Below are positions 107 to 44,167 of a stretch of DNA of 64,000 nt, piece by piece. A program made the position numbers and the translations under genes. Position 1 is the stretch's first letter. Each line of letters begins with the position of its first letter. The stretch is from positions 42,368 through 106,367 of the forward strand of contig DATBWR010000016.1 in assembly GCA_036514715.1 (NCBI GenBank), read 5' to 3'. This DNA is from Candidatus Nanoarchaeia archaeon (GTDB lineage Bacteria > Patescibacteriota > Microgenomatia > Woykebacterales > RBG-16-39-9b). The notes beneath the pieces are model-generated. The model saw nothing but the letters and a program-made list of their open reading frames with translations, was not told the DNA's origin and did no database searches.

Positions 107-3100
107 TTGGAGATTGACAAAAATTCGTCTAAACGTAGCTTGGTCATTACAATCCACGGCTTCAATAGTTCAGCTACTACTGAGTTCCAAGACATGGCAA
201 GGAAAAGCGCAGGAGAGCCCTCCGGTCCCTTCGACTACATAGCCTACGGCTGGAGTCAGTTAGCAAGCAGTCTCTATTCTGGCACTAAGGTTTCACTTGG
301 ACAAGTTCCTCATCTGGAACAAGCTAGTCGCGTTGGTCGCTGTATCGCTTATGATGTTGCTAACAGCCAATACACATACGTTCATGTTATTGGCCACTCT
401 CTTGGCTCAACTGTAGCAGATTCGTTTTCCAAGAAGTTGTCCGAGTTAGTTGGTGGTTACATTACAGTAGCCCTGACTGGGCTGGATGCTTACACCGGGG
501 TAACTCCGGGAAATTTTGGTAGTGCAGCTGCCTTCACAGATCACTATCTGGCAACTGATGACTACCCACTAACTAACTGGACTTTCGCCAACGCCTGCAA
601 CGTGGACGTTACCAGCCTTAAATTTGATGGTTCCTTCACTGGAGGTTCCCACGGCTGGCCGATTCAATTCTACCTTAAAACTCTTGACAGCCCTCTCCAA
701 GTCAATTTTAAGGGTCTTGGCTTTGCTTACCATCGAGAGTACACCGGAATAACTCCGATCTTTAGCAACCGTTGTCCGCAAGGACAGGTAATTAAACTGG
801 AGCCGTGTCTTCTGAACTGCAGTCCTACGCCTGCCCCTACCCCGACTCCGACCCCCACGCCTACCCCAAACCCCACTCCAAGCCCGGGAACTTCTTGCAC
901 CACTCCGGTAGTAACTCAACCAACTGCCGGGGGGAATTATGCTGCCAACGGTTCGCCGGTGACAATCAAATGGAACACCAATTGTCCATCGAGTTATTTT
1001 GAAATCACCGGTGGGCCGTATACGTCCCCACAAACTGCTGGTTGGAGATCTGGTACCCAATATACGTATGCTCAGGGCTTATGGAGCGGGTCTTACAACC
1101 TTAGAGTTAGAGGAAGGGATTCTCAGTTACGTCAAACCAACTGGAGTACAATTGTTCCCTTTACAGTTGGGAGCTCTTCGCCCAATCCAACTCCGACTCC
1201 TCCTCCAACTTCCGGGGCGTCTTGCAGCACTCCTACGATCACCCAACCCAGTTCCAACGGCAATTTCCCTGAAGGTGGGCCGGTCACCATCAAGTGGTCT
1301 ACCAGCTGTCCCTACAGTTACTTCGAAATCACCGGCGGACCCTACACTTCACCGCAAAATGCGGGTTGGATAACGGCAAAGGAATTTACCTATGCCCAAG
1401 GTCTTTGGCCGGGCGCTTACAGCCTGAGAGTACAGGGTAAAGATTATCAGGGTAGGCAAACAGGATGGAGTTCCACAGTCAACTTTGCCGTCGGCAACTT
1501 CGCACCAACGCCCGCCTGCTCCGGCAATGGGTTGATCTACGATAGTACTGGCCGCTGTGCTGGAGTTTCTGACACAAGTTGTCACAGCCTCCCCTCACTC
1601 GGCTTAAACTCTCTTAAATCTGTCACCCTCAACTCCGGCTGGAGCGTAGTAATTTCTTCTAAAACTGACTGTAGTGATGAGATTGGTCGTTACCAACAAA
1701 GCACGACTATTGATACTGGAGTAGCCTCCGGGGCCAAGGCTATTCGTCTGGAAGCAATTCTCCCCAGCGATTGTCCCGAACTTCCACCAACCGGTGGCAT
1801 CCGCGCTTACCGTGAAGGCGGTTTCCGCGAGGGGGGTGGTTGCCGTAACACTACTCTCTCCCAAGGCGGCATTCCTTCTTTTCCAGCAGTTGGCTATCCA
1901 AACGGCCCCTCCTCCATGAAGTTTTTCGGTGACCATATTGACCGGGCCCAAGTCACGGTTTACCCGGGAGAAAATTACACTGGTACACCTTGTGCAACTT
2001 ACACCCAAGACGTTAGCGACTTCTTAAACTGCAACGGCAAAGTTATTTCTATTAAAGTGGATGCCTTCACACCGCCCACCCAGGCGCTAAATATTGCTAG
2101 TGAGGGTCAGTGGGACCTTGATATGTCCGCAGCTTTGGACAACGACCCAACCACCTGGTCGGGGGTTCCCCACGGCGGAAGCGTTGGTGTAGTTTTCCCA
2201 ACTTCACAAAAAATTCTGGGTCTAGTGGTTCACGACCGACCACCCGACTCCGTAAATCCCAACGGCATCAACAAAATTTACGTTAGTTTTGGTGGCGGTG
2301 TAAGCGGAGGCATGATCATCGATAACATCGACCTAGTGGCTTCCGGGCAACGCTGCGCCATAATAGCTCCAACAACTTCGATTGATGCCAGATGGGTTAG
2401 TATAAAGCTAGCTGATAGTAGCGGCGGTAACGGTTTTTCCGATGTGGAAATTTTCGCTGCCGACGGTGGCACTATCCGTCCAACTATTCCTTGTCCTAAA
2501 GTTTACACGGATGATGCCAAACCAGGTGTTTCCGCCCCACCTAGCAACTGGGTGGAACCAATCTCATCAACTTTGAAAACTCCAGCTTGCGATAGCAAAA
2601 CTCTCATGCTCTTTGTTGCAGCTAACGACAGCTTCTCGGACAAATGTCCTTCCAGTGGAGTGATCGGAGCAACAGAGGCTTTACCTTGCGGACCGTCGGT
2701 TCACTTCAATGGTGCACGAACAATTAATTTGACTGATAGTCCGCAATTAAACTCGGGCAAATTGTCAATAAGCATTTGCGCGAAGATTGATGCTTGGGCG
2801 GCCAGCACTTTCCTACGCAGAGAATTGCAAAACGGGGGGACAACAGACCAGTTTATGTTGGGTACGCGCGACGGTAATTTGTCGGCTCACATTTCCTGCT
2901 ACCCTGATATAATTGGCACAAAGCCTATATCTACTGGTTGGCATGTCTTAGGTTTAATCTTCGATGCTCCCAACGGAACTTTATCAACAACGATTGATGG
3001 AGTAATTGTCGACACGGTGACTAATTCTCCGGGAACCAATTGTCCTAGCTGGGATTCCGGCTATGGACCGTTGGTTTTGGGAAACAACCGCGCCAATGCC

Positions 3101-3148
3101 GATTACTTTACCGGGGACATTGCCTGGGTTAAAATCGCTACTCCCTAA
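107..3148 (+). CDS. Large multidomain surface/secreted protein: N-terminal alpha/beta-hydrolase (lipase-like, GHSLG nucleophile elbow), PT-rich linker, two tandem ~100-aa beta-sandwich repeats, discoidin (F5/8 type C)-like domain, C-terminal LamG/concanavalin-like domain
   Basis: 1013-aa ORF with motifs ITIHGF and GHSLGS. The TPTPTPTP linker, the duplicated CTTPVVTQP...FEITGGPYTSPQ modules, the ALDNDPTTWSG...VEIFA discoidin-like stretch and the FTGDIAWVKI LamG-like C-terminus are all visible. The frame is open to the window edge with a TTG start at 107, so the true N-terminus is uncertain and no signal peptide is seen. Confidence 0.75.
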   Translation: MEIDKNSSKRSLVITIHGFNSSATTEFQDMARKSAGEPSGPFDYIAYGWSQLASSLYSGTKVSLGQVPHLEQASRVGRCIAYDVANSQYTYVHVIGHSLGSTVADSFSKKLSELVGGYITVALTGLDAYTGVTPGNFGSAAAFTDHYLATDDYPLTNWTFANACNVDVTSLKFDGSFTGGSHGWPIQFYLKTLDSPLQVNFKGLGFAYHREYTGITPIFSNRCPQGQVIKLEPCLLNCSPTPAPTPTPTPTPTPNPTPSPGTSCTTPVVTQPTAGGNYAANGSPVTIKWNTNCPSSYFEITGGPYTSPQTAGWRSGTQYTYAQGLWSGSYNLRVRGRDSQLRQTNWSTIVPFTVGSSSPNPTPTPPPTSGASCSTPTITQPSSNGNFPEGGPVTIKWSTSCPYSYFEITGGPYTSPQNAGWITAKEFTYAQGLWPGAYSLRVQGKDYQGRQTGWSSTVNFAVGNFAPTPACSGNGLIYDSTGRCAGVSDTSCHSLPSLGLNSLKSVTLNSGWSVVISSKTDCSDEIGRYQQSTTIDTGVASGAKAIRLEAILPSDCPELPPTGGIRAYREGGFREGGGCRNTTLSQGGIPSFPAVGYPNGPSSMKFFGDHIDRAQVTVYPGENYTGTPCATYTQDVSDFLNCNGKVISIKVDAFTPPTQALNIASEGQWDLDMSAALDNDPTTWSGVPHGGSVGVVFPTSQKILGLVVHDRPPDSVNPNGINKIYVSFGGGVSGGMIIDNIDLVASGQRCAIIAPTTSIDARWVSIKLADSSGGNGFSDVEIFAADGGTIRPTIPCPKVYTDDAKPGVSAPPSNWVEPISSTLKTPACDSKTLMLFVAANDSFSDKCPSSGVIGATEALPCGPSVHFNGARTINLTDSPQLNSGKLSISICAKIDAWAASTFLRRELQNGGTTDQFMLGTRDGNLSAHISCYPDIIGTKPISTGWHVLGLIFDAPNGTLSTTIDGVIVDTVTNSPGTNCPSWDSGYGPLVLGNNRANADYFTGDIAWVKIATP
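890..1510 (+). repeat. Two in-frame tandem copies (~300 nt each) of a domain-coding module, preceded by a PT-rich low-complexity linker (820-893)
   Basis: The protein-level repeat TSCTTPVVTQPTAGGNY...FTVGSS aligns with ASCSTPTITQPSSNGNF...FAVGNF. This is coding, not CRISPR. Confidence 0.8.
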
Positions 3149-3883: not shown

Positions 3884-4177
3884 TTAATCTTCGTCTTCGG
3901 CGTCACCAACACCATCAGAGTCAGTATCAGCGCGGTTTGGATCGGTGCGGCGATAATTAAGTTCGCTACGATCATCTAGTCCGTCTCGATCAGTGTCGGC
4001 AGTTAATGGGCTAGTGCCATGACGTAGAACTTCTTCACCGTCAGCAATACCGTCGCGGTCGCTATCTGCATAGTTCGGGTTGGTGCCTTGATAGGCTTCC
4101 TCTGTATCACTCAAACCATCATTATCAGAATCAGTTGTCCTCGGATCTTCAGTCTTTGGATCGTCTTGCATAAGCAT
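3884..4177 (-). CDS. Thrombospondin type 3 repeat-like calcium-binding mini-protein (four DxDxDGxxD repeats)
   Basis: Repeats DSDNDGLSD, DSDRDGIAD, DTDRDGLDD and DTDSDGVGD. There is no signal peptide and the RBS is weak, so it may be a remnant. Confidence 0.45.
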   Translation of the reverse strand: MLMQDDPKTEDPRTTDSDNDGLSDTEEAYQGTNPNYADSDRDGIADGEEVLRHGTSPLTADTDRDGLDDRSELNYRRTDPNRADTDSDGVGDAEDED

Positions 4178-4291
4178 ACCAATCGGAGTCAGTTCAATCG
4201 CTATAGCGTTGCTAATTATTCTTTATTAAAACCTCACGCCCAAAACGTTGATTGTCGTCCGAAAACATCTAAATCCTGGTTATCTTGAAAA

Positions 4292-4942
4292 CTAGGTGGG
4301 TTTTTCCTCGTCAATCTTGTTAATCTGAAAGTTTATATGTGGGTTTACTTTTTTAATCACAATCTCGTAATCGCCTTTATCTCTACACAGTTGAATGGTC
4401 ATTTTAATCTTATCGCTATCTTCCTCTGAACTTATAATTTTGATAAAATGTCCCACAATTTTATCATCTGTATACCCCCACTTCTTATCATCTTCTTCCC
4501 CAGATTTTCTCTCAATCATTATTGTTAGTAATGCGGTTGTCGCTGCTATCACCAAACTCATGGATGCCAGAGCATAGAAAATACCTTTATACGACCCATC
4601 GCTTATTGTAAGTAAGATGAATATAAAGATGACAGTAAACAACAAACCTGCGTTGGCCAACACGTAACCGTATTTACCTTTTATCAAGCCTAGGTCAGCA
4701 CTATTAGGTAGCAGGTGTCTTTGCAAGTAAATAATTAAAACAGCTAATAAGCTTAGGATGGTCGCTACAATTGAATATTTCAAAAAGTCTTCTGTATTAT
4801 TAAAACCAAGAGATGATGAAACTGCTTCGAACCACGTAAGTGCTAGTGGTATAAGTGAGACAGTAAAACCAAAAATATTAACAGTCCATGAGACTGCCTC
4901 GGCGGGTGAACCTTCTTTCAAAATTGTTCTCTTGATCAACAT
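4292..4942 (-). CDS. Hypothetical 4-TM membrane protein with a ~70-aa charged C-terminal domain, co-oriented 15 bp downstream of the RM gene
   Basis: Four hydrophobic helices. Lies in the ~30% GC island and forms an operon-like arrangement with 4958..8035. Confidence 0.6.
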   Translation of the reverse strand: MLIKRTILKEGSPAEAVSWTVNIFGFTVSLIPLALTWFEAVSSSLGFNNTEDFLKYSIVATILSLLAVLIIYLQRHLLPNSADLGLIKGKYGYVLANAGLLFTVIFIFILLTISDGSYKGIFYALASMSLVIAATTALLTIMIERKSGEEDDKKWGYTDDKIVGHFIKIISSEEDSDKIKMTIQLCRDKGDYEIVIKKVNPHINFQINKIDEEKPT

Positions 4943-4957
4943 AAGTAATTCTTAAAT

Positions 4958-7900
4958 TTAGAAATTTGTAGCTTTGTCTATTTCTTTCATTAGCTTTTCT
5001 GTCTCTGTTAGTGCGACTACTATCTTTTGGTAATGTTCAATATCTTCATTAGTTAAAACTCTGCCCTTGCGGTCTTTGAGCCATTTTTGCGCTGGTTGGT
5101 AACCACCGATATAGAAATTCCAAGCAATTTCAGGAACTTTGCCAAAATATTGCTCTGCATTGATAAATACTTTATCATCCTTATATATTACTTTGTCGAA
5201 AATATCTGATCCGGTTACCGGATAAGTAGTAACGAATTTATTTACCTTGGGAGATTCAAGTAAGTGCAGTGAACGTAACTCAGTACCAAAAGCAACAAGT
5301 TTTTTGAAACTTTTGACGTCCTTGGGATATGGCACACGCGGAAAATCAATTTTCAGGAATTCTTTGTATTTCTCTCGATAACTTGGCGAGTGCAAAACTG
5401 CGTAAATATAATCAAATATGTCTTCTGGTGAAACTTTGCCAACAATTTTTTCTATTTCATCAATAATTTCTTTTTTGAGATTTGCTTCTCGTGTACCATC
5501 TTCTGAATAATTATAAATTGGGAATAGATTATAAGGAGCAAAGGGTTGCGAACTCATGTCTGTAATAGAATTTGTCATATAGGAAGTAAAATGTTTTCCT
5601 GCTGCATACTGCTTACAAGCAATTATTGCATAGTTACTTCTATACATACTCGACATAACTTTTTTACTTGCTCCTCCTCTACCAATTTCTATTAAATTGG
5701 GCTGATACCATATCCATCTATAGTCGAACGGTCTGTACATGTAAACATACTCACGATAATCTTTGTCATTGTTATTTAACAGTTTTCCTTTTTCCCTTTC
5801 AGTATTCCAATACTTCCCATCCTTAATTTCCAGCTTTCTTTGAATTTCGCTTATACTGGTTTCTTTTCTTAAAACGTCTAGTTTATCTAACAGCTTCTTT
5901 TTTTCGAAATTAGTCAATAATTTATCATTATTAGTTTTTACACCATTACCATTTACAATAAAAATTTCTTTTAACGACGGAAAACTTTCATATTCCTTAG
6001 ACGAGCTGAAATTTTTAGGAACAAAGAAATAATAAGGCGATGAATAATTCAGCTTTTCCCATTTAACTTCTCTCATATCATTTTTGTTTAGTGCGTTGAA
6101 TTTATCTGCTTGCTTTCCATAAAGATCTGAGTGATATACCTCACCCAAACCTTTCTTTTCACTTTCTTTACGGAGAAAAATATTTATGGAGACACCTTGT
6201 TGGATATCAAAAACATTTTTATCTTCACCACCATCAGGGGCTTTTTCTTGAATGTTGGAATTACCATGTAGATCCAATATATAAATTTCATCGAAAGTTT
6301 CAAGTAGATGCTTTCTCATCTGGCGGTGAATAACCCCACTTATAAATGAGTTATTAGTAATCATTGCTACAATCCCACTTCCATTTTTCTCAACAAAATG
6401 TTCTGCGAAACGGATGAATTTTATATAATCATCTGAGAGGGGTTGAATATTTCTTTCATTGAGATTTGTTTTGTAATCCTTGGTGAGATTCTGTATCCAC
6501 TCACCTTTATTGGAGGAACTCACACTGTACGGCGGATTTCCGATAACTACCATAATTGGTTTTTCATTTTTTATTTTCGATGCTTCTTTTGCTTCCTCTG
6601 CGATACTTTCAGCAAAACCAAATGAAAACAGATCTTGTTGGGCTGGGCTTTCTTCGAGAGAATTGGTGAGATAAATTCCAAGTCGTTGGTTGAAATATTT
6701 AAAACCAGTTTCTCTAAAGGCCATGCTCAACTTCAAGTGGGCTATTGTATACGGTGTCATCATTAGCTCAAAACCATGCAGTCGTGGAAGCAAGTCGTTA
6801 TGAACATAGGTTGGCCAACGACCTTTTTGCCCACCTTTAAGTAAATGTGTATAGATAACACGAATAACCGCGCTAATAAAAGTACCTGTTCCAGCAGCTG
6901 GGTCAAGAATTTGAACTTTGTGTAGGTTAGAAGCTGTCTTTGACGTGTCTGCCAAACCTGTGGCAAGACCAAACTCTTTCTTGAGTAGGAAATCGACTGA
7001 ACGCACTATAAAATTTACAACAGGAAGAGGAGTATAGTAGGCTCCCATCTTTTTGCGGAGGTTTGGGTCGTATTCCTTCAAAAAATCTTCATAAAAATGT
7101 ATAACGGGATCTGGGCCCTTTTGAGTTTTACCACTTGATTCTTTTTTAAAATACTCTTCCATAAGGGCGGCGACATCAGCATGAGAGAAAACTTCACACA
7201 ATTCATTGACGATATATTCAAGTCTTTTGTCGAAGTCAGGCCCAACTATATGATCGAAAAAATGTCTGAGAAGCGGATTCGATTTTGGGATTAAGTCACG
7301 AGCTTCCTGCCTAGAAAAGTCTTTTTCCGTATCATCATGATAGCGAGCAATGAAAAGTCCATAAACGAGAGTTTGTGCGTACATATCAGCGAAAGAGTCT
7401 TTCGTTAAATCATGAACAAGAAGTTTTTTAATTGTTTCGTAGACCCGAACAAGCTCAGTATTTTTATCTGATTCGGTAGCAAGGAATTGCTTTACGTTGT
7501 CTCGAATTCTTTGAGCTTTACCTCCCATAATCTTTGCTAGATGCTGACCAGACCGTATAGGTTCTTTTTGTGATTGGGTAAAATCAAGAAGAGTTTTAGT
7601 GAGAAACTCAAAGTTTTCTGGGAAAGGTTTAGTTGTTCGACTTTTAAGGTCGTAATCGCCTATTTTTATTGGTTCTCCATAGTGAATACCGTTTCTATAA
7701 AAGCGAAACTCCAGATAGTCTGTAAGAACAAGGTTGGTATAGCCAAAATACCTAGTCATCTGCTCAGATTTTTCGACCTTATCTAGAGAGACACCAATAT
7801 CTTTTGCCTCAATATACAAAATGGGTATATCGCCTTTGAGGACAACGAAATCAGGTTTGTTACCTTGCACAGCCCGAGCATCATGAAATATGTGCAGACC

Positions 7901-8035
7901 GCCAACTGATTCAAAAACATTTTTAAGTAGAGCCTCAAGATCGGCACGGTAGCCCATCTCGCTGGTTTCTGGGTGAGAGAATTTTGTGGCGGTTGACTGA
8001 ATATAATTTTCTAAAATACCTTGCACATTATTCAT
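4958..8035 (-). CDS. Type IIL/IIG single-chain restriction-modification enzyme (MmeI family): N-terminal PD-(D/E)xK nuclease plus gamma-class N6-adenine methyltransferase plus C-terminal TRD
   Basis: 1025 aa. Motifs PDFVVLKGDIPILYIEAKD (D...EAK nuclease motif), GAYYTP, ILDPAAGTGTF (motif I) and VIGNPPY (motif IV). AT-rich composition. Confidence 0.85.
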   Translation of the reverse strand: MNNVQGILENYIQSTATKFSHPETSEMGYRADLEALLKNVFESVGGLHIFHDARAVQGNKPDFVVLKGDIPILYIEAKDIGVSLDKVEKSEQMTRYFGYTNLVLTDYLEFRFYRNGIHYGEPIKIGDYDLKSRTTKPFPENFEFLTKTLLDFTQSQKEPIRSGQHLAKIMGGKAQRIRDNVKQFLATESDKNTELVRVYETIKKLLVHDLTKDSFADMYAQTLVYGLFIARYHDDTEKDFSRQEARDLIPKSNPLLRHFFDHIVGPDFDKRLEYIVNELCEVFSHADVAALMEEYFKKESSGKTQKGPDPVIHFYEDFLKEYDPNLRKKMGAYYTPLPVVNFIVRSVDFLLKKEFGLATGLADTSKTASNLHKVQILDPAAGTGTFISAVIRVIYTHLLKGGQKGRWPTYVHNDLLPRLHGFELMMTPYTIAHLKLSMAFRETGFKYFNQRLGIYLTNSLEESPAQQDLFSFGFAESIAEEAKEASKIKNEKPIMVVIGNPPYSVSSSNKGEWIQNLTKDYKTNLNERNIQPLSDDYIKFIRFAEHFVEKNGSGIVAMITNNSFISGVIHRQMRKHLLETFDEIYILDLHGNSNIQEKAPDGGEDKNVFDIQQGVSINIFLRKESEKKGLGEVYHSDLYGKQADKFNALNKNDMREVKWEKLNYSSPYYFFVPKNFSSSKEYESFPSLKEIFIVNGNGVKTNNDKLLTNFEKKKLLDKLDVLRKETSISEIQRKLEIKDGKYWNTEREKGKLLNNNDKDYREYVYMYRPFDYRWIWYQPNLIEIGRGGASKKVMSSMYRSNYAIIACKQYAAGKHFTSYMTNSITDMSSQPFAPYNLFPIYNYSEDGTREANLKKEIIDEIEKIVGKVSPEDIFDYIYAVLHSPSYREKYKEFLKIDFPRVPYPKDVKSFKKLVAFGTELRSLHLLESPKVNKFVTTYPVTGSDIFDKVIYKDDKVFINAEQYFGKVPEIAWNFYIGGYQPAQKWLKDRKGRVLTNEDIEHYQKIVVALTETEKLMKEIDKATNF

Positions 8036-20692: not shown

Positions 20693-21586
20693 ATGACCGA
20701 CATTCGCCAATCACCCTATTGGTCAGAATTTATGAAAGAGTTGGGATGGGGAGTCGAAAAAATTGGCAAAAAAGATCAAAAACAATTTGTTTTTCTTAAA
20801 AAGATCCCTCTTTTAGGAACGGTTTTAAAATCCCCCCGAATTGCCACTCCTATACCCTTTACCGAGATCGACGAACTAGCACAAGAAAGTAAGGCCGCCT
20901 TTGCCAAAATCGAGCCAAACCACACTAGTTCAGACAAAAGCCTATTTGCGGCTCTAGCCCAAAACTCCTTTTTACCAGAACGTTGGTCTTTGCATCCAAC
21001 GAAAACTATCATCATTGATCTAAGAAAAGGCGAAAACGAGCTTTTGGCAAATATGGAAAAAGATACTCGCTACAGCATCCGGGCGTCCCAACGACGGGGA
21101 GTTCGGGTGGTCAAAAGTAGTGACCTGGAAAGGTTTTTAAAGCTTTATCGGCAGACTGCCAAACGGCAGCGATTTTGGATTGCCGAAGCAGAGCTGAGGC
21201 TGTTGTGGGAGATTTTTTCTAACGAAGGCAAAGCTTTTATCTTAATTGCTCAGTGGAATAAAGCGGATATCGCTGGCTGTTTAATTTTGCATTACGACAA
21301 AAAAGCCTATTATTACCACGCTGCCTCGATCCGCCATTTGGGCGAGCTTTTTGCTCCGTATCTCTTAGTCTGGGAAGCAATGTTAAAATCCAAGGCCTTA
21401 AAGTTGAAGGAGCTGGATCTGGAAGGAATTTATGATCCGCGTATCCCCACAACCTCTAAGTGGCGCGGCTTTAGTCATTTTAAAAAGGGTTTTCGTGGGG
21501 AAGAAGTAGAGCTGGCCGGTAGTTTCGTAAAAACTTACAACCCCTTGGCAAAACTACTTTTCAAATTCGGCAACTTTTCTTTTTGA
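20693..21586 (+). CDS. FemAB-family peptidoglycan bridge-formation aminoacyltransferase-like
   Basis: DTRYSIRASQRRGVRV and GNAT-fold-like features consistent with the FemABX family. Confidence 0.55.
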   Translation: MTDIRQSPYWSEFMKELGWGVEKIGKKDQKQFVFLKKIPLLGTVLKSPRIATPIPFTEIDELAQESKAAFAKIEPNHTSSDKSLFAALAQNSFLPERWSLHPTKTIIIDLRKGENELLANMEKDTRYSIRASQRRGVRVVKSSDLERFLKLYRQTAKRQRFWIAEAELRLLWEIFSNEGKAFILIAQWNKADIAGCLILHYDKKAYYYHAASIRHLGELFAPYLLVWEAMLKSKALKLKELDLEGIYDPRIPTTSKWRGFSHFKKGFRGEEVELAGSFVKTYNPLAKLLFKFGNFSF

Positions 21587-21620
21587 AGCTACTGTCCCAA
21601 TTGTCTTGAACCTATAGTTG

Positions 21621-21649
21621 TTGACTTTTCCTAAATTTAGTGCTATAAT
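21621..21649 (+). promoter_or_regulatory. Near-consensus sigma70 promoter (TTGACT-17-TATAAT) driving the GC-rich island gene
   Basis: TTGACT at 21621-21626, 17-nt spacer, TATAAT at 21644-21649. An AAGGAGG RBS at 21663-21669 and a GTG at 21678 follow. Confidence 0.6.
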
Positions 21650-21677
21650 TTTCGCCAAAAGTAAGGAGGGAGAAACG

Positions 21678-22676
21678 GTGGTCGTGTCAAACTCAGAAGA
21701 GGGCCTTCTTGATCGAATCGTTAGGATCGCTTTTGAGGAAACGGCGCCGGAAATCCACGCTTTAGTGGTCCACCGTTTCCCCGATGACGATGCATGGCTC
21801 AGCACCTGGATAGCCAGGAAGTTCATTCCCAGGGCAGCCAACGCCCAACTCGTTTTCGTGAGGTCGGGGGAAAAACTGCCTGGAACCGAAGATGATCCGC
21901 ATGTGCTCCACTTCGATACCGGAGGGGGCGAATACGACCAGCACAACAGGAGCCTGGAAAAAACCTGCAGTGCTGTTCTTCTGGCCAACAGGTTAGGGGT
22001 TCAGAATGACCCAGGTCTAACCGAGCTACTCAAGATGGCGACCGATGTGGACAACGTCAGGAAGCTGCCTCCGACCAGCATTCACTACGCTATCGAAGGC
22101 TACGCCCGGCTCTTCCAAAAGGAAAACGAAGTTGCCTGGGAAAAGGTTCAGGAGCGGGTGTTTGAGCTCTTCAACATTGTCTACGGACAAGAAGCCCAAC
22201 GAGCTCGAGGAAAAAACGATCTAGAGAAATTCGGGCGGTGGACACAGCACCCTAACGGTGCCAAGGTTTGCTTTCTTCCCTATCACCCAAACACTCGCGA
22301 AGCTGCTTTCGCAGCGGGAGCAACTGTGGTGATTTGGACTGAAGCTTGCAAAGCGCCTTTCAGGGGTCGGGTCCAGATCGGTATTCAACGTAGCCGTGAC
22401 CACGAGTACCTCAAACTGAGGAGTGTGGCCTGGTCGCTGCGGAAAGCTGAGGCCTTGCAACGCACCCTTCAGCTGGGTGAGCAAGAGCTGGGGGCGGTGG
22501 GAGAAGATTCCAACACTCATTGGTTCCTACACGACAGCTTGGGCTTTGTTTGCAACGGCAGCCGCACTCACCCGCTGGAGAGAGAAGAAGAGTTTAGTTT
22601 GCTCAGTCTGAATCAGGTTCTAAATCTGGTAAACCGCGAGGTAGCTTCAATGTCGCTTGCTCCTGCAGGCAGATAA
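21678..22676 (+). CDS. Divergent DHH-superfamily phosphoesterase-like protein (NrnA-like motif HRFPDDDAWLS...YDQH); GC-elevated foreign-looking gene
   Basis: Start assigned to the GTG 8 nt after the AAGGAGG RBS; the ORF track extends it to a TTG at 21618. Motif II resembles the NrnA H-x-x-PDxDAxGS motif. Rough hand counts give 53-58% GC. Confidence 0.35.
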   Translation: MVVSNSEEGLLDRIVRIAFEETAPEIHALVVHRFPDDDAWLSTWIARKFIPRAANAQLVFVRSGEKLPGTEDDPHVLHFDTGGGEYDQHNRSLEKTCSAVLLANRLGVQNDPGLTELLKMATDVDNVRKLPPTSIHYAIEGYARLFQKENEVAWEKVQERVFELFNIVYGQEAQRARGKNDLEKFGRWTQHPNGAKVCFLPYHPNTREAAFAAGATVVIWTEACKAPFRGRVQIGIQRSRDHEYLKLRSVAWSLRKAEALQRTLQLGEQELGAVGEDSNTHWFLHDSLGFVCNGSRTHPLEREEEFSLLSLNQVLNLVNREVASMSLAPAGR

Positions 22677-22761
22677 GGAGGCTTCGGTCAGAGGAGTGAA
22701 AATCCACAAGATTTTCGCCCCTTCTTTATTTTCAAATTCTTCCCTCTCTTAAATTAAAAGC

Positions 22762-22790
22762 AAAAAATCCATCTCTTTTTGAGATGGAAA
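22762..22790. terminator. Bidirectional hairpin terminator between convergent island genes
   Basis: AAAAAAT CCATCTC TTTTT GAGATGG AAAG. Confidence 0.5.
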
Positions 22791-22903
22791 GTGTTGGGAA
22801 GGTTTTTTGCAACCAGACTCGTTTTCGAGTACTTCCCCTGATTCTTATTCTATTTTTGGAGTTCCTTGCGTCAGTAATGTTCGCCGATCACCCTCTGTCC
22901 TTT

Positions 22904-23791
22904 CTAGCTGTAGCGACCGGGCCCGCGGTTGCTCTTCCTGCTATTGCGCGGTGCCCCTCGCTTCTCGATCCTCTTTTTGCTTCGCGGAGTTGGTTCCGAC
23001 GGAACGTACTCGACTACCTGATGGTCTGCGAGAAGCCGCACCATTTCCTCAGCCGCACCATCAAGCGGGTCTGACGCTGCAGATTGGTGACCGTCGCAGG
23101 TAACCTGACCGTTAGCAACGGACAAGCCACCACGGTGAGGTGTGCCCCGAACAGGACAGCAGTAGTGTCCTTGGCAAACCACACCGCCTTCCACCACCCT
23201 TAGGTTCCCCCAGTGCTTCTCTGGTGAGTTCACTACGAGGCAGGATGGAGCGGGTGTGTTTGCGGGGTTATGACCCTCGCAGTGCCACCTACCGTTCACC
23301 TTCACGAGCTTCGCACCAGAGTGAGGCGTGCCGTTCTGAACCACACAGCGAACGCTTGTGGTCACCCGAGCCTTGACTCCGGAAACGATGCCGCTCTGTG
23401 GATCCGAGGCTTTTTTGGTTGCCTTGAACCCTTTTCGGCAGCGGTCGCAATACGGATTTTCACCTTCGGCGACTGGCTTCGTCACGCGCTCACACGTAGC
23501 GAAGTTGGTACAGTCGACATAACCCCTACTTCTGAGCTTCTGCACATAGCAGGAACCGCAGTAAGGGTCTAACCCTGTCCGTAGTTTCGTCAAGCGTTTG
23601 CACTTGGCGTAGTTGACACACTCAACGTACCCCTGCTTCCTCAGCTCCTCTTCGAAGCATGGTTGGCAAAGGGGACCGTTGGGATCGGCGGGGTTCTTGC
23701 CGCACTTGGAGCACATCTTTTCGCTTGGAGTCTCGGCTGAGACAGCCTCGCTCACCTTGGTTGTTTTTGCGCTTGACTTATGTGCTGCCAC
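22904..23791 (-). CDS. Cysteine-rich protein with internal repeats (3x CxxC...GYV[ED]C.N[YF]A.C and 2x GTPHxG...NG...C[ED]GH) and a basic C-terminal tail; function unknown
   Basis: 295 aa. GTG start with an AAGGAGGG RBS. GC-elevated. The repeats are visible in the translation. Confidence 0.6.
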   Translation of the reverse strand: MAAHKSSAKTTKVSEAVSAETPSEKMCSKCGKNPADPNGPLCQPCFEEELRKQGYVECVNYAKCKRLTKLRTGLDPYCGSCYVQKLRSRGYVDCTNFATCERVTKPVAEGENPYCDRCRKGFKATKKASDPQSGIVSGVKARVTTSVRCVVQNGTPHSGAKLVKVNGRWHCEGHNPANTPAPSCLVVNSPEKHWGNLRVVEGGVVCQGHYCCPVRGTPHRGGLSVANGQVTCDGHQSAASDPLDGAAEEMVRLLADHQVVEYVPSEPTPRSKKRIEKRGAPRNSRKSNRGPGRYS

Positions 23792-24446
23792 TTTGAAAAT
23801 CCCTCCTTAAAAATGGGGCTAACTAACGTGTGGAGCGCTATTTGGTTGTTAAGGACCTCCTTTAGGCGACTATTATACTCCTTTCAAGCTAAATCTAATC
23901 CTCACGAAGCTGGCTTAGCAAGGGGAAAGAATTCACCTCCTTTTTTGACCTCTCACCAAGCCAAGTTCGTATTGATTAAGTTTTTAAAGATAGAGACGGG
24001 CGGTGAGGGGTTTTCCGTTCAGCATATAGCTTACTTGTACTTTCCTCACCACCCAGAGAGTTTCTCGAAGACTAACCTCGCGGCGGGGTCTTCGGCTAGG
24101 TCGACGTAGCTCTGGAGGCTAGCGCCGGCTGTAGGATGGGTTAGCGGGTCCGCTTGTACTCGATGGCCTTCTCCAGTTCGAAGAAGATGATGCCGTCGAT
24201 GACCCAGTATGGCCGATCCGAAACCTTGCGCTGCACTTTATTTTCCTTTCGCTACTGTACAACCAGTTTTGTAGCTAATACTATAACATATTTTTGTCCT
24301 TTTGTCAAGTTCTATAGGACGTTCTTGAGAGCTAGATCAAGAACGTCCTGCGCTTTGCTACGCAAAGCTAGGGTCTATAACTAAATCAATATTTTGTAAC
24401 CCATAGTTAGAGTCTGTTTCCTTCTGTGGATTAGGGCGTAAGTGGA

Positions 24447-27389
24447 CTATTTATTAGCTAGAGAGAAGGGGCAAATGGAGTTGTATGCACAGTAATTACA
24501 GGCCGGTACTCGGCCAAAATACTTGGGGTTAGCGGGGAAATTATTGTTTTGTAAATTCTGCTTTATGTTTTGGGAAACTTCAATTATTTCGTTTTCTGTT
24601 TTTTCTAGAGCTTCTTTTTCCGGCTCATAACCGCCTGCTAAACCAGAGTCCAAGTCGTAAATGCCAACAAACTCTGGAATAACTTGATAATTTTTATAAT
24701 AGCCTAAAGTATAGACTTTAAGTTGGATGCTTTTCTTTGCATCTTTTTCCAAATTTTTGTGGGTGCGGCCTTCGGTTGATTTAAAATCAATAATTCTTAC
24801 CTTTTCCCCGTCAACATCAACCCGATCAAAACGGCCGCTGACTAAGACTTTCGTCTTTCTACCGTTTAAATTGAAGCGAAAAGGTTTTTCAATAAAAGTC
24901 GGGATTTCTCTCGACTTTTTCTCCCGGTTCCAAAAATTTCTAATGACTTCTTTAGCTTGGATAAGTCGCTTTTCCTCGTGCTCAGCAGTCAAAAACCCCT
25001 CGGAAATCCAAGCATTTTCCAAAACTTCCAGCGTCGACTCTAGGTTAAGTGTCTTACCGACCATTTTCTGGCGGTAGAACTCTGCGACAGCAGCATGGAG
25101 CGCGTAGCCGTAAATTACGGTGTGGTGACGTAAAATCGGTACCCGTAGCACATGGGCGTAACGGTATTTGTAAGCGCAAGTTTCGTAATCATCAATTGAA
25201 GCTTGGGTTAAGCGAATAATTTCCGACTCTCTTTTAGCGCTAAAAGGTGTCGGTGGTCTACCGGCAAACTGTTCAATTTTTCCCCGAACGGTCTGTTGTT
25301 GGAGACTCTCCTCCATCTTAGGCCGATCTAAGGCTTCTAAAACAAACGGAGAAATTTTTTTAAAGCGCTTGCCTCCAACGTCTTTGGACCAAGTGTAGTA
25401 AAGCCGGCTCTTGGCGCGGGTTGTGCCTACATAAAAAAGCCTACGTTCTTCTTGAACATGGTAGTCACCTAACGGTAAAACTTCCTTGATAAGTACTTCT
25501 GGAAGAGAAATCGGCTCACCCCGCTCTCGGGAAGGAAAATGATCAGCATCTAGTCCGACCATAAAAACAACTTTAAACTCTAAGCCCTTGGCTGCGTGCA
25601 CAGTCATTACGTTTACTGCATTTTGTTCCGGGTCAGCCTCTGCGGTGGCTGGATCGTCTCCGGCCAAACGCATAATTTCAAGGTAGTCAATAAAAGCGCG
25701 AACTGACTCATTTTGGGAAAGGTCAATAAACTCTTTAATTTTGTCGAAAAACTTGGCAATATTCTGGATTTTTACCTCTGCCTCCACACCTTGTTTTTCC
25801 AGTTTCTCTAGGTACTTAGTTCGTTGAATAAACTCGTACAAAACTTTACCCACGTTTTCACGGCGTGATAAATCAAGGAATTTTTCGACATCGGTGTTTA
25901 TTTGCTTGACTGTCTCTCGGCCCGCCTCTGAAACCTGTATTTCTTCAAGTTTTTCGAGATTTTTAAAAACATAGTGCAAGGTTCTTGAGCGTCGTTTGGC
26001 TAAATCCATAGCAACTATACAGTCCTCTGGTGGTAAATTGTAAACAACGCTCGCAGCCAAGTTGTAGAGGTTGAGGCTGTCATCAAAATTGGAAATTGCA
26101 GTCAGAAACGAGATTAAAACTTTAACTTCCGGCTGGTTGTAAAGACCTGAGAAACCGACAAATTTATGAGGAATACCCTTTAAGTTTAGCGCTCGCAAAA
26201 ATGGGTCAGCTTGAGAATTAGCCCTGATCAAAATCGCAGTTTCTTTAAAATCTAACTTGCTTTTTGTAAGTTTTTCAATTTCACTAGCGACAAAATCAGT
26301 TTCCTCAGATAAGGTTGGGCAGGTCACTAGCGTTGGTCCCTCTCCAAGCACGCTGCGGCCGGCAGTAAGTTTTTTATTAATTTTATTCTTTACTTCCAAA
26401 CGGTCCGGATCGTTAAAACGTATTAGACGGTAGCCAGCATCCAGTAAATTCTGAGTAGAGCGGTAATTGGTGGCTAAAACAATTTGTTTAGACTTCTTAA
26501 AAGCCTTTTTGAACTCTAAAATATTGGAGATTGCCGCTCCCCTGAACTTGTAGATACTTTGGTCATCATCCCCAACCACACAAATATTTTGGTGGGACTT
26601 GGCTAGCAGCTTGACCAGTTCGTTTTGGGCGTAGTTGGTATCTTGGTATTCATCCACTAAAATATACTTAAACTTCTGTTGGTACTCTTTGAGAATTTTA
26701 GGTCGCCTCCGAAAAAGGTTTAGAGTCATCAAAACTTGATCACCGTAATCAATTTTTCCGGCAGCTGTTTTCAACCGCTCGTATTGCTCATAAACTTTAC
26801 CTAACTCCTCCTGCCTCTTAATTTCTTCCAAAAACTCCCTCTTTTCCTCTGCACTTTTGGCTTTTAACTTTTGACTTTTTAATTCTCTAATATATTTTTG
26901 ATACTGTTCGGGTGAGACGTCTTCATCCTTACAACGACTAATAAAGGCCAAAATAGCCTCGATAAATTTAGTCGGGTTGGCGAGCGGTCGGTAATAGTTA
27001 AGATCAAAGGCAAATAAGTTTTGTTGGAAAAATAAATTTGCTTGGGGACGGGTCAAAACTTGGAAATCTGGCGGTAAACCCAGATCCAAGGCTTTTTCCC
27101 TTAAGATCCTGTCGCCGAAAGCGTGGAAAGTGGAGATCCAAGTGTCGATATAACCATAAGGTACCAGAACGTCAACTCTTTCCTCCATTTCGGCCGCGGC
27201 TTTTTCCGTAAAAGTAAGCCCCAGAATTTCCGAAGGTTTAGCTAATTTTTTTTCAATGATGTAGGCGATGCGTCGGGTGATAACGCTAGTTTTTCCAGTC
27301 CCAGCTCCAGCGATAATCAACAACGGGCCTTTGGTAGTGGTTACAGCCTCTTTTTGTTGCTGGTTCAAGCCTTTAAGAATATCTGCCAT
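24447..27389 (-). CDS. UvrD-family helicase fused to a C-terminal PD-(D/E)xK (RecB/Cas4-like, 4-Cys) nuclease domain
   Basis: IIAGAGTGKTSV Walker A. C-terminal IIDFKS...QLKVY nuclease motifs and a CNYCAYNSICPF cysteine cluster. 980 aa. Confidence 0.85.
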   Translation of the reverse strand: MADILKGLNQQQKEAVTTTKGPLLIIAGAGTGKTSVITRRIAYIIEKKLAKPSEILGLTFTEKAAAEMEERVDVLVPYGYIDTWISTFHAFGDRILREKALDLGLPPDFQVLTRPQANLFFQQNLFAFDLNYYRPLANPTKFIEAILAFISRCKDEDVSPEQYQKYIRELKSQKLKAKSAEEKREFLEEIKRQEELGKVYEQYERLKTAAGKIDYGDQVLMTLNLFRRRPKILKEYQQKFKYILVDEYQDTNYAQNELVKLLAKSHQNICVVGDDDQSIYKFRGAAISNILEFKKAFKKSKQIVLATNYRSTQNLLDAGYRLIRFNDPDRLEVKNKINKKLTAGRSVLGEGPTLVTCPTLSEETDFVASEIEKLTKSKLDFKETAILIRANSQADPFLRALNLKGIPHKFVGFSGLYNQPEVKVLISFLTAISNFDDSLNLYNLAASVVYNLPPEDCIVAMDLAKRRSRTLHYVFKNLEKLEEIQVSEAGRETVKQINTDVEKFLDLSRRENVGKVLYEFIQRTKYLEKLEKQGVEAEVKIQNIAKFFDKIKEFIDLSQNESVRAFIDYLEIMRLAGDDPATAEADPEQNAVNVMTVHAAKGLEFKVVFMVGLDADHFPSRERGEPISLPEVLIKEVLPLGDYHVQEERRLFYVGTTRAKSRLYYTWSKDVGGKRFKKISPFVLEALDRPKMEESLQQQTVRGKIEQFAGRPPTPFSAKRESEIIRLTQASIDDYETCAYKYRYAHVLRVPILRHHTVIYGYALHAAVAEFYRQKMVGKTLNLESTLEVLENAWISEGFLTAEHEEKRLIQAKEVIRNFWNREKKSREIPTFIEKPFRFNLNGRKTKVLVSGRFDRVDVDGEKVRIIDFKSTEGRTHKNLEKDAKKSIQLKVYTLGYYKNYQVIPEFVGIYDLDSGLAGGYEPEKEALEKTENEIIEVSQNIKQNLQNNNFPANPKYFGRVPACNYCAYNSICPFSLANK

Positions 27390-27466: not shown

Positions 27467-27691
27467 TCAAGCTCCGTAGCGGATTTCGGAAAGTAGTACT
27501 CTCCAGTCTACCCATGTTGGCGCGAATGGGATCAGTAGCGTAACCACGAGAAGGCTCACCTCGTCTCTGTGCTGGACCACGAGCCCATTACCCATCCGCC
27601 ATTCAGCCAACCGGTTTATTAACTGAAAAGCAACCGCAACGACGACGTAATAGACCGCCAGTATTGTCAGGACGATCTCCCACAATTCCAT
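27467..27691 (-). CDS. Small hydrophobic hypothetical protein (GC-elevated)
   Basis: 74 aa with an AGGAG RBS, 10 bp downstream of the rmuC stop. Rough hand counts give ~48-60% GC. Confidence 0.35.
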   Translation of the reverse strand: MELWEIVLTILAVYYVVVAVAFQLINRLAEWRMGNGLVVQHRDEVSLLVVTLLIPFAPTWVDWRVLLSEIRYGA

Positions 27692-42410: not shown

Positions 42411-42980
42411 TTGCTTAAGAACACTTTTCAAAGAGTCGGTGTTTTTATTGATATCCAAAATCTTTACTATTCAGCCAAAAATCTCTACAGTGCTAAAGTA
42501 AATTTTGGAAAAATTTTGGAAACTGCAGTTGCTGGCCGGCAACTAATTCGTGCCTTTGCTTACGTCATACGGGCTGATATTCCCGAAGAGCAACCTTTTT
42601 TCGATGCTCTTACCAAGAGTGGTTTCGAAGTTAAAGCTAAAGATATTCAAATTTTTCCCGGGGGAGTGAAAAAGGGTGATTGGGACGTGGGAATTGTCAC
42701 GGATATGATCCGTCTTGGTCCAAAGCTTGATGTGATGATTTTGGTTTCCGGTGACGGGGACTATGTGCCGGCGCTTGAATATTTGCGCAACCAAGGACAT
42801 CTAATCGAGGTAATTGCTTTTGGTAAAAGTACTTCAGCCAAACTAATTACCGAAGCTGATGAATTTACAGATTTAGATCAAGAAGCGCAGAAATACTTAA
42901 TTCGAACCTATAGAAACCAACCAAGACGAGCCTACCACCGTAACCCCAACCGGGAAAAAACTAATTTAGAGGAACTGTAA
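42411..42980 (+). CDS. NYN-domain (LabA-like) protein
   Basis: VGVFIDIQNLYYS...DVMILVSGDGDY NYN/PIN-like acidic motifs. Confidence 0.7.
   Translation: MLKNTFQRVGVFIDIQNLYYSAKNLYSAKVNFGKILETAVAGRQLIRAFAYVIRADIPEEQPFFDALTKSGFEVKAKDIQIFPGGVKKGDWDVGIVTDMIRLGPKLDVMILVSGDGDYVPALEYLRNQGHLIEVIAFGKSTSAKLITEADEFTDLDQEAQKYLIRTYRNQPRRAYHRNPNREKTNLEEL
42942..42980 (+). repeat. Direct repeat copy 1 (gene 3' end; att-like)
   Basis: AACCCCAACCGGGAAAAAACTAATTTAGAGGAACTGTAA. Matches 43628-43666 at 37 of 39 positions. Confidence 0.8.
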
Positions 42981-43073
42981 CTTGTTGTTGCATGAGATGC
43001 TTATAGGATTGGTTAAATCTAATTATTGACTATAGGTCTGCTCTCTGCTGTGGTTTTTGTCGCTTAATTACTA

Positions 43074-43364
43074 TTGTGCGACGTTTCGAATCGTGCCGAT
43101 ATTGAAGTGGATATTGGGCGGGCGAATCTCTCAAGTCTTGTGCAATATGTTAGAATGCACACAATGGATAACTCAGTTTCTAGTCAAATCGGCTACCTGC
43201 TAGCGGTCGGGGGCCTAGTTGTCATTCCCTTAGGTATTTTGGTTTCGGCTTCAGCAGCGTTATTTGCGATCGCGACTCACAAACGAAGGTTGTGGCCATA
43301 TGTTAAATGGCCGCTCCTAGTGACGATCGGACTCACCCTTCTTTACACGCTAGCCATCGGCTAG
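43074..43364 (+). CDS. Small 2-TM hypothetical protein inside the repeat-bounded insert
   Basis: 96-aa ORF with hydrophobic helices. Uncertain. Confidence 0.3.
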   Translation: MCDVSNRADIEVDIGRANLSSLVQYVRMHTMDNSVSSQIGYLLAVGGLVVIPLGILVSASAALFAIATHKRRLWPYVKWPLLVTIGLTLLYTLAIG

Positions 43365-43627
43365 TTATCTTCGGCAAGCGGACCAGCCGCCGGCCGCTAT
43401 GACCCCGCAAGCGACAAAGACTTTCTTCGTCTCATTGGGCTCTTTCCAGATAGTAGTGTGATCGTCTGTCATTCTGCTTGGGAACCGATTTTTGGCGACA
43501 CGGTTAGAGCTTCGAAAATAGTAGATAGGATTAAAGAACGGCGTGCTGAAATTGTTATCGATGGTGACTCGTATAGAGTTAGGGATAAACTTCTAGTCTC
43601 TTAGATTAGTGTAGAAACGTCTACTGC

Positions 43628-43666
43628 AACCCCAACCGGGAAAAAGCTAATTTAGAGGAACTATAA
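43628..43666 (+). repeat. Direct repeat copy 2 (displaced original gene 3' end, in frame ...NPNREKANLEEL*)
   Basis: AACCCCAACCGGGAAAAAGCTAATTTAGAGGAACTATAA, followed by a terminator. Confidence 0.8.
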
Positions 43667-43680
43667 ATTGGAATAGAAAT

Positions 43681-43702
43681 GGATCCCTTCGGGTTCCTTT
43701 TT
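43681..43702 (+). terminator. Rho-independent terminator following repeat copy 2
   Basis: GGATCCC-TTC-GGGTTCC stem with one T-T mismatch, followed by TTTTT. Confidence 0.5.
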
Positions 43703-43720
43703 ACTACAAGAAAATAGTGA

Positions 43721-43769
43721 AGCCCGCCCCGCATTGAGTTGACATTGAAGTCTTCTCGCGGGGCGGGCT
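43721..43769. other. 12-bp GC-only-clamped perfect hairpin (AGCCCGCCCCGC...GCGGGGCGGGCT, 25-nt loop) at the start of a GC-rich noncoding stretch (43.7-44.1 kb)
   Basis: Seen directly. No ORF of 60 aa or more in the region. Confidence 0.5.
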
Positions 43770-44167
43770 CTTGCGTAGTCTCAATTAAAGTCGAGAACTA
43801 CGCGCCGGCGTCGAAGGGTCGGCTGGCTCAGCTACCCGGGACGGCGCCGAAGTCGAGGTCGACGATGGACGTACAGGCGATTTGCTTTATGCTCGTGATC
43901 TTGCCCGGGTCCAAATGAAACCCCTTTCCTGAAAGCTTTGTTGTCCCATGACGACAAAGCACTTACCGATAGCAAACATTCTAGCATAGCCGTCAATTCT
44001 TGTCAACCACTATAGGATCCTCGTATTTACTATCTCCTACCGGAGATTAAATACTGTGGATCCTGCGCTCCAGCAATAGTCTAACGACATTAATCCAAAG
44101 GACGCAAAGCGCGCAGCGATTTATTTCGCTGGAAGCTTAGGCCCCTTGACTATGTTAAAATTGGCTG

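Follow-up and report, generated by a model that had tools for sequence, protein, structure and literature searches.

A probable long-lived, hypervariable GC-rich accessory slot between FemAB-family and helicase–nuclease genes in a Woykebacteria-like bacterium

The stretch of DNA analysed here, hereafter the window, comprises 64,000 nucleotides (nt) of assembly GCA_036514715.1 (contig DATBWR010000016.1, positions 42,368 to 106,367 of the forward strand), deposited as Candidatus Nanoarchaeia archaeon, and contains at ~21.6–24.35 kb a segment rich in guanine and cytosine (GC) that encodes two proteins, A and B, between a FemAB-family gene and a helicase gene. With a probability of about 0.6, this segment is the local form of an accessory slot, hypervariable and GC-rich, that has long existed in Woykebacteria-type bacteria of the candidate phyla radiation (CPR), and not a recent import from a high-GC source. 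GC-richness persists across lineages, both in the slot and in the family to which gene A belongs. Between its helicase–nuclease and femAB-like borders the slot would hold two independent transcription units: on the minus strand, an extended −10 sigma-70 promoter following the helicase gene would drive a ~480-nt leader, containing a 31-codon open reading frame (ORF) and a stem-loop element termed R1, and then gene B; on the plus strand, gene A would be transcribed from its own consensus promoter. A and B would co-reside with no obligate pairing. The GC excess would be generated by a locus- or gene-specific GC-raising process, for which recombination-associated GC-biased conversion in a hotspot is favoured, possibly accompanied by cassette exchange inside the CPR gene pool.

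Slot position and content in related genomes

The right border of the slot is a UvrD-type helicase gene with a PD-(D/E)XK nuclease domain (24447–27389, minus strand; Pfam), orthologues of which border the slot in relatives at 65–73% identity; the left border is a FemAB-family gene (20693–21586, plus strand; Pfam FemAB, 6.4e-22), with orthologues bordering the slot in loci L006, L064, L065 and L066. The nearest named homologues of the window helicase belong to Candidatus Woykebacteria (61–70% identity), followed by Curtissbacteria, and these matches, taken with gene content, indicate at sequence level a Woykebacteria-like CPR lineage. The NCBI labels look wrong, an identical helicase being filed under 'Candidatus Nanoarchaeia archaeon' and the related chromosome OZ246414.1 under 'Gammaproteobacteria', where gene content and nearest named homologues point to Woykebacteria/Microgenomates (CPR).

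Chromosome OZ246414.1 (L006/L011), closed at 915 kb, has the gene order of the window: thioredoxin-UvrD-3D-FemAB, slot, helicase-RmuC. Its slot carries a TrpR-like gene, a 195-amino-acid (aa) protein and an orthologue of A, the last in the orientation opposite to that of window A and 48% identical to it; the FemAB proteins are likewise 48% identical, and flanking genes range from 35 to 75%. GC in this slot is 51–54% against ~42%, with GC at third codon positions (GC3) of 0.59–0.61. In four further relatives, whose helicases are 68–73% identical to that of the window, the cargo comprises a 143-aa B-like ORF (L061); five ORFs of 46, 141, 242, 438 and 257 aa (L064); ORFs of 139, 278 and 141 aa (L065); and a lone 88-aa ORF in the smallest slot, of 1.2 kb (L066). 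Most of this cargo has a GC of 0.57–0.63 and GC3 of 0.55–0.84, against 0.40–0.44 GC in flanks and genomes.

An empty slot was seen in none of the five related slots examined (0/5), all of which hold GC-rich cargo. The first-pass annotation of the window, which had proposed a foreign island, had raised the prospect that the FemAB–helicase junction is uninterrupted elsewhere; it never is, being filled in all five relatives with contents that vary and are always GC-rich. Conserved synteny at native composition, which that annotation had named as speaking against an island, was found by half: the synteny of the slot is conserved, and its composition is non-native in the relatives too. An obligate two-gene A–B module is ruled out, A being missing from the slot in L064–L066, inverted in L006, and alone between S1 and FtsH in most CPR lineages. 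Among PADLOC defence models, neither A and B nor the cargo of the slots was matched, apart from weak coiled-coil-type hits for one L064 protein.

Variation and GC enrichment extend to the intergenic spot on the far side of the helicase gene, between helicase and RmuC. In the window it contains a 74-aa hydrophobic ORF (27467–27691, minus strand; GC3 0.61); in L006 (4048–4769), 99-aa and 61-aa ORFs at 0.48–0.52 GC; and in L066 (6080–6940), a patatin gene.

Base composition and codon usage of the segment

Between 21.68 and 24.17 kb the window reaches 52–57% GC against a background of ~43%. Counted in 1-kb windows, GC is 0.52–0.54 over 21501–24000, with most of the 64 kb at 0.40–0.45; counted in 100-bp blocks, it is 0.50–0.63 across 21701–23800 and again across 24001–24200, dipping to 0.33 at block 22701, in the convergent spacer of A and B, and to 0.42–0.43 at 23801–24000, in the leader. 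As a single 2.5-kb window, 21501–24000 lies 3.2 standard deviations above the mean in GC and has the highest tetranucleotide distance within the 64 kb (z = 3.2). GC3 is 0.589 in gene A and 0.632 in gene B, against 0.411±0.039 in the 47 other ORFs, and an excess of +0.155 for A and +0.198 for B persists once amino acids and the codon usage of the genome itself are taken into account. Amino-acid composition is therefore ruled out as the source of the high GC; the shift has a synonymous component beside an amino-acid-driven one. The excess of GC-ending codons is present in C3 and G3 alike, and the noncoding stretch 24001–24200 is likewise GC-rich. The elevated GC and the altered codon choice described in the first-pass annotation are both real, the latter as a synonymous shift, and its account of the surroundings (FemAB and helicase flanks, no integrase) is borne out by Pfam and by inspection of the segment.

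Sharp compositional boundaries are also what would be expected of an assembly or binning artefact, in which a chimeric contig joins CPR DNA to a GC-richer fragment. This explanation is rejected, since five or more independent assemblies, made from different samples, contain this sequence (gene A in 5/5, the order FemAB-A(-B) in 4/5), and an equivalent GC-rich slot is found in the closed 915-kb chromosome and on other long contigs. The contig is represented in samples ERZ27254818, ERZ27254843, ERZ4903072, ERZ28563625 and ERZ28563803. Within 21300–24600 there is no integrase, transposase, tRNA target or flanking direct repeat; the sole tRNA of the window lies at position 36359. Terminal direct or inverted repeats were considered as island borders and discarded, the matches being 15–25 nt long and at chance level.

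Family A across Patescibacteria

Non-exhaustive scans yielded 12 loci of family A in species-representative genomes and 37 in metagenomes, with more added by contig look-ups. All informatively labelled genome loci are from Patescibacteria, including Saccharibacteria, Nealsonbacteria, Wildermuthbacteria, Parcubacteria and Paceibacterota bins. At most loci A lies in the conserved block GyrA-MBL-S1-A-FtsH-RluD-L19, and it is a syntenic core gene in most lineages. At 25 of the 28 distinct loci its GC3 is above the value predicted from the codon usage of the host (mean excess +0.093, maximum +0.256), with mean excesses of −0.02 to +0.04 for the six flanking control genes (S1, FtsH, GyrA, MBL, RluD and L19). 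Since the GC3 excess accompanies A nearly everywhere and does not extend to its flanks, high GC is a trait of the gene family and not a mark of arrival. Where A lies between S1 and FtsH, it stands 5–23 GC3 points over its neighbours in most CPR genomes (loci L008–L059; for example L054 6001–6933, L027 275–1222 and L021 8001–9023).

Selection acting through expression has been considered as the origin of this excess, GC-ending codons, consensus promoters and perfect Shine-Dalgarno sites being attributed to very high expression or to rare-codon throttling. Two near-consensus extended −10 promoters with AAGGAGG sites, an excess shared by C3 and G3, and the persistence of the family A excess even where A is a core gene are all compatible with such selection; at sequence level, the expression signals noted in the first-pass annotation hold, as signals of strong expression. 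S20, L19, S1, FtsH and GyrA, which are expected to be highly expressed, have no comparable GC3 excess, however, and GC-ending codons are therefore not the preferred set, which disfavours preferred-codon selection; the GC-richness of noncoding 24001–24200 is a further point against an explanation that appears improbable.

Gene A: expression signals and predicted fold

Gene A (21678–22676, plus strand; 332 aa) is preceded by the promoter TTGACT-17-TATAAT with a TG extension (21621–21649, plus strand; 11 of 12 consensus matches) and by a ribosome-binding site, read from the sequence as AAGGAGG, 8 nt before its GTG (21663–21669, plus strand); the database gene model P0001 begins at the same GTG. 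The start would accordingly be GTG 21678, and a listed TTG at 21618 is unlikely to be the real one because it lies at the −35 region of the promoter and shares one base with the hexamer. Terminator-like hairpins 3' of A (22696–22718, plus strand) and, with a T-run, 3' of B (22768–22788, minus strand) both lie inside the convergent spacer between the two genes, which measures 227 bp at 33% GC. Promoter, ribosome-binding site and hairpins are all found where they had first been annotated.

Window protein A had no match above significance in Pfam, NCBIfam, PHROG, PADLOC or PDB sequences. Its 41 aligned homologues, 42–56% identical to it and all ~320–390 aa long, have ten invariant His/Asp positions: H32, D36, D38, H78, D80, D87, H89, D125, H136 and H285. 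Four of these, D36, D38, D80 and D125, invariant across all 41, would supply the motif I DxD and the motif II/IV Asp metal ligands of DHH proteins, and in the C-terminal domain H285 and G294, within WFLHDS...NGS, do not vary; the GGGH motif of DHHA1 is absent from that domain throughout the family. An alignment-based AlphaFold model of A (predicted local distance difference test, pLDDT, 91; predicted template modelling score, pTM, 0.83) gave significant Foldseek matches in the PDB exclusively to DHH/DHHA1 proteins, namely PPX1, PggH, TM1595, RecJ-like, NrnA and DhhP. On this model a two-domain DHH plus DHHA1 fold is predicted with confidence, and the most likely activity would be that of a divalent-metal phosphoesterase with nucleotides or short oligonucleotides as substrates, comparable to nanoRNase, pAp phosphatase or pGpG phosphodiesterase. 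The earlier description of A as DHH-like consequently stands at the level of the predicted fold (AlphaFold, Foldseek); in its motifs the family deviates from the canonical set, with DQH for DHH, no GGGH and no match to the DHH or DHHA1 models of Pfam.

A second likeness, at the level of the family, is to Pfam ChrB_C (PF09828), matched by 21 of the 41 members over profile positions 5–130 of 132; the best match (1.3e-7) scores 32.5 bits against a 25-bit gathering cut-off, which three members exceed. PF09828 is the C-terminal domain of the chromate-responsive regulator ChrB (PMC3817168). A role for A as a ChrB regulator is ruled out by the lack of an N-terminal DNA-binding domain and by its neighbourhood, formed by FemAB and helicase or by S1 and FtsH. 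A gene product with a predicted DHH/DHHA1 fold and ChrB_C-like sequence, probably a metal-dependent phosphoesterase, is the description adopted here. The family A profile also drew a lone match among PDB sequences, to RhCC, which was dismissed as spurious.

Promoter, leader and the R1 element

Missed by the first-pass annotation, the slot promoter on the minus strand (TTGACA-17-TATAGT with a TG extension, 24280–24308; 11 of 12 consensus matches) lies just 3' of the helicase gene, and the same promoter follows the helicase gene in 5/5 relatives (L006, L061, L064, L065 and L066). As judged from the sequence, it probably drives the leader together with B; the leader would measure ~480 nt because no predicted terminator separates this promoter from B. 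At the start of the leader a 31-codon ORF (24141–24236, minus strand), encoding VQRKVSDRPYWVIDGIIFFELEKAIEYKRTR, is tentatively assigned. A small peptide, MRIGTYYVVNGVVHTNRQLANECKKD, is encoded at the same leader position in L006, the differences from the window ORF being mostly at third positions; the similarity is convincing for the window–L006 pair only, and weak to the small ORFs of L064 and L065. A full-length alignment of three leaders was set aside as unreliable outside the promoter and the small ORF.

Further along the 5' leader of B lies R1 (23895–23970, minus strand), a stem-loop of ~80 nt whose outer stem measures 12 bp and whose loop reads AAGGAGGTGAAT. BLASTN and a covariance model recovered six strong copies in five genomes (the window, L061, L064 twice, L065 and L066) and a weak seventh copy in L006; each of the six lies 50–190 nt upstream of a cargo ORF. 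Across the outer stem, 72 of 72 cells are paired and 5 of the 12 pairs show compensatory change; the covariation score was reached by 0 of 500 shuffles, and slid registers drop to 17–47% pairing. Predicted folding energies of the individual copies are −26 to −29 kcal/mol (z of −2 to −4). The loop, with its near-invariant AAGGAGGTGAAT and Shine-Dalgarno-like AAGGAGGUGAAU, is partly paired with a downstream C-rich stretch. Scores under the model are 73–89 bits for the sense strand and 19–32 bits for the antisense strand, an asymmetry that, with the G-U pairs, favours an RNA on the sense strand. R1 may control the translation of B or the fate of its transcript. No Rfam 15 match at E ≤ 1 was obtained for window 21400–24600 or for the R1 copies of L061 and L064–L066, and a viral-contig hit to the R1 DNA pattern (L069) was discarded on failing the covariance model.

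Two tandem R1-plus-ORF units in L064 (8894–8980 and 9540–9622) have in common an 85-nt direct repeat of 82% identity, which suggests that R1-plus-ORF cassettes duplicate along with the leader element; no R1 accompanies A or the larger genes of L064. These units bear on a further explanation of the slot, in which the slot is a promoter-proximal array and CPR bacteria exchange its R1-plus-ORF cassettes, drawn from a GC-rich mobile pool (an unknown CPR phage or plasmid, or an integron-like system), with R1 as the recombination site. Such exchange would account for co-directional cargo ORFs behind one conserved promoter, for the tandem L064 units with their common repeat, for cargo that is unlike between close relatives, and for the occurrence of a subclade of A in unrelated contexts with sharp GC boundaries. 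Against it stand the absence of an integrase or other recombinase in or beside the slots inspected (window, L006 and L064–L066); the properties of R1, which lies 5' of ORFs, has G-U pairs and a strand-specific loop, as expected of an RNA and not of an attC-type DNA site, and has no RYYYAAC/GTTRRRY cores; the lack of R1 in the larger L064 genes and in A; and the want of any viral-contig match once the lone pattern hit had failed the covariance model. Cassette exchange as the full explanation is accordingly doubtful, but less so than selection through expression.

Immediately upstream of the slot promoter, a perfect 13-bp palindrome, AGGACGTTCTTGA-N8-TCAAGAACGTCCT (24316–24349, minus strand), ends 7 nt before the −35 hexamer and could be a terminator of the helicase gene or an operator; it is not conserved in L061, and L006 has a divergent TrpR-like repressor gene there.

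Gene B: a Cys-rich family resident in the slot

Gene B (22904–23791, minus strand; 295 aa, GC3 0.632) is preceded by AAGGAGG at 23808–23802, 10 nt before its GTG. Three zinc-knuckle-like units occupy residues ~27–120 (CxxC-x11-CxxC, CxxC-x11-CxxxxxxC and CxxC-x17-CxxC), and three C-x-V..G.(P)H.G..L..G...C..H repeats residues ~148–236, followed by a helix and a basic Arg/Lys-rich tail (...PTPRSKKRIEKRGAPRNSRKSNRGPGRYS) with terminal GPGRYS. Searches of Pfam, NCBIfam and the PDB gave no match to B, and PHROG a single non-significant hit (E 0.051); the repeat unit itself, C-x-V-x2-(P)G-x-H-x-G-x-L...C-x2-H, had no counterpart in the searches of these four collections. The AlphaFold model, built on a three-sequence alignment, is poor (pLDDT 50), with non-significant LIM-like fold hits. 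B may bind zinc together with nucleic acid or protein.

A word-indexed search recovered B alone; an exhaustive search recovered P0043 (8e-12) and P0045, both with Cys/His units and the tail, as well as weak matches to repeated C.KC..NP...G..LCQ.CFE knuckles. P0043 is encoded directly downstream of a helicase 70% identical to that of the window, and hence in the same slot (L061); the 141-aa protein of L064 and the 88-aa protein of L066 are further slot-resident relatives, and the 195-aa partner in L006 resembles B in the GPGRYS tail only. Because these proteins are 27–37% identical in the same slot where the helicases are ~70% identical, B represents a fast-evolving resident family and not a foreign orphan. 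The first-pass annotation was right to call B Cys-rich and without an annotated family; B is no orphan, relatives being present in the slot.

Long residence weighed against recent import

A recent foreign island, with a high-GC actinobacterial host or a phage of that host as donor and with local expression signals gained later, was the origin first suggested for the segment. The outlying GC, GC3 and tetranucleotide composition would fit such an arrival, as would slot content that differs among relatives and the near absence of database relatives of B. Against it, all identifiable homologues of A belong to Patescibacteria and lie mostly in a core syntenic block; the in-slot A of L006 has diverged as far as FemAB (48%), which indicates old residence; and relatives retain B-like genes at this position, together with the promoter and the R1 leader. 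The window locus has no integrase, tRNA or repeats. Actinobacterial genes (65–72% GC) typically have GC3 far above ~0.6, and the GC3 of ~0.6 observed here is far under that typical value. No relatives of A, B or R1 were found in phage, plasmid or viral-contig collections, and no donor lineage was identified, homologues of A and B coming from CPR metagenome bins only. With CPR-only homologues, an in-slot orthologue and no phage, plasmid or viral relatives, an actinobacterial or phage donor is not supported, and recent import is regarded as very improbable, ranking below even selection through expression.

Several observations nevertheless weigh against long residence of the slot, or against parts of the account given for its genes. 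Gene content varies among genomes with ~70% identical helicases; A is missing from three of the slots (L064, L065 and L066); and turnover of content would also be the outcome of repeated horizontal replacement. Window A groups with P0002, P0003 and P0029, which occur in unrelated, sometimes sharply AT-rich contexts, and this subclade may be mobile between genomes. The R1 alignment consists of only six copies. For the assignment of A, motif III reads D87-Q88-H89 (YDQH) and not DHH, with D and the second H invariant and Q near-invariant; none of the 41 members (0/41) matches Pfam DHH (PF01368) or DHHA1 (PF02272) at E ≤ 1; and the window's own A has no ChrB_C match at E ≤ 1.

The context of P0002, the closest relative of window A (53% identity), is illustrated by L068, a 2.6-kb contig on which P0002 (193–1128; 0.55 GC, GC3 0.69) adjoins a 0.35-GC DUF4238 gene at 1496–2452 across a very sharp GC boundary.

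Implications

For the calling of genomic islands, the slot counsels caution: a strong anomaly of GC, codon usage and tetranucleotides in reduced genomes can be an old resident feature. The analysis also provides a first structural assignment, a predicted DHH/DHHA1 fold and probable metal-dependent phosphoesterase, for a Patescibacteria-wide hypothetical family usually encoded beside S1 and FtsH. Few RNA-turnover enzymes have been recognised in CPR bacteria, and a nanoRNase-like candidate is useful for that reason. At a fixed hotspot, the analysis brings to light a structured RNA element that had no annotation and a family of fast-evolving zinc proteins, and a compositional puzzle is raised by the persistent gene- and locus-specific GC3 excess.

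A more ambitious proposal, put forward as speculative and unlikely to hold in full, is that of an undescribed diversification locus: one conserved strong promoter would serve changing cassettes, each with the structured RNA R1, characterised by covariation in its 12-bp stem and by an invariant AAGGAGGUGAAU loop, as well as with rapidly diverging, zinc-binding, basic-tailed proteins, and a locus-specific GC-raising process, by hyper-recombination with GC-biased conversion or by targeted mutagenesis, would hold the locus 10–20 GC points over the genome in the long term and act also on the CPR-wide gene A.

Other features of the window

At 4000–8035 the window contains an AT-rich island (33–37% GC, tetranucleotide z of about 3). 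A restriction-modification enzyme of Type ISP/IIG, 1025 aa long (Type_ISP_C 1.9e-79, N6_Mtase, Eco57I), is encoded there beside a membrane ORF of 216 aa, and the classical picture of an acquired defence island appears to fit this stretch better than it fits the GC-rich slot. A 1013-aa protein at 107–3148 (plus strand), probably a surface protein, combines Pro/Thr linkers, repeated ~100-aa Cys modules, a lipase-like N-terminus and a C-terminal Laminin_G_3 domain, and its GC of 0.50 is amino-acid driven (GC2 0.54, GC3 0.47). Between an NYN-domain gene and tsaD, 1.2 kb without an ORF of at least 100 aa (42980–44168), slightly enriched in GC (0.45–0.48), gave no Rfam hit.

Comparison with known systems

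DHH/DHHA1 phosphoesterases, comprising the NrnA nanoRNase/pAp phosphatase, PggH, the TM1595 phosphodiesterase, the GdpP catalytic domain, yeast PPX1 and the RecJ core, are the structural relatives of A, at 5–15% identity between family A and the solved structures and with low template modelling (TM) scores (0.2–0.3) that come from a different domain orientation or from inserts; family A departs from them in having DQH for DHH, no GGGH and no Pfam DHH/DHHA1 match. With ChrB, half of family A has in common a fit to the whole ChrB_C profile, whereas A has neither the N-terminal DNA-binding part of ChrB nor a chrA neighbour, and carries in addition a DHHA1-like domain.

Modules of the zinc-knuckle, zinc-ribbon and LIM-like kinds are approached by B in its CxxC spacing and its three C...H...C..H units, LIM domains being the sole weak structural neighbours, but there is no significant sequence or fold match to any of them. 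R1 is, like Shine-Dalgarno-sequestering leader hairpins, ribosomal-protein leaders and riboswitch expression platforms, a structured element of a 5' untranslated region, placed before the ORF, in which a Shine-Dalgarno-like sequence is paired to a C-rich stretch; it differs in that this loop lies 50–190 nt upstream of a start codon with its own ribosome-binding site, and in having no Rfam match.

An integron cassette array has an IntI integrase beside its promoter and attC sites with RYYYAAC/GTTRRRY cores 3' of its ORFs; here the neighbour of the promoter is a helicase–nuclease gene, and R1 is not of the attC form. Flexible, replacement-type genomic islands and hypervariable slots share with the slot described here a fixed position between conserved genes, varying cargo, deviant composition and a lack of mobility genes, while this slot differs from them in cargo 10–20 GC points over the genome in every lineage, in a conserved promoter and structured leader, and in a B-like gene homologous across genomes (27–37% identity). 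The elements found are thus of known kinds, occurring here in variant form: an uncharacterised DHH-fold/ChrB_C family, a flexible genomic slot and an unannotated leader RNA.

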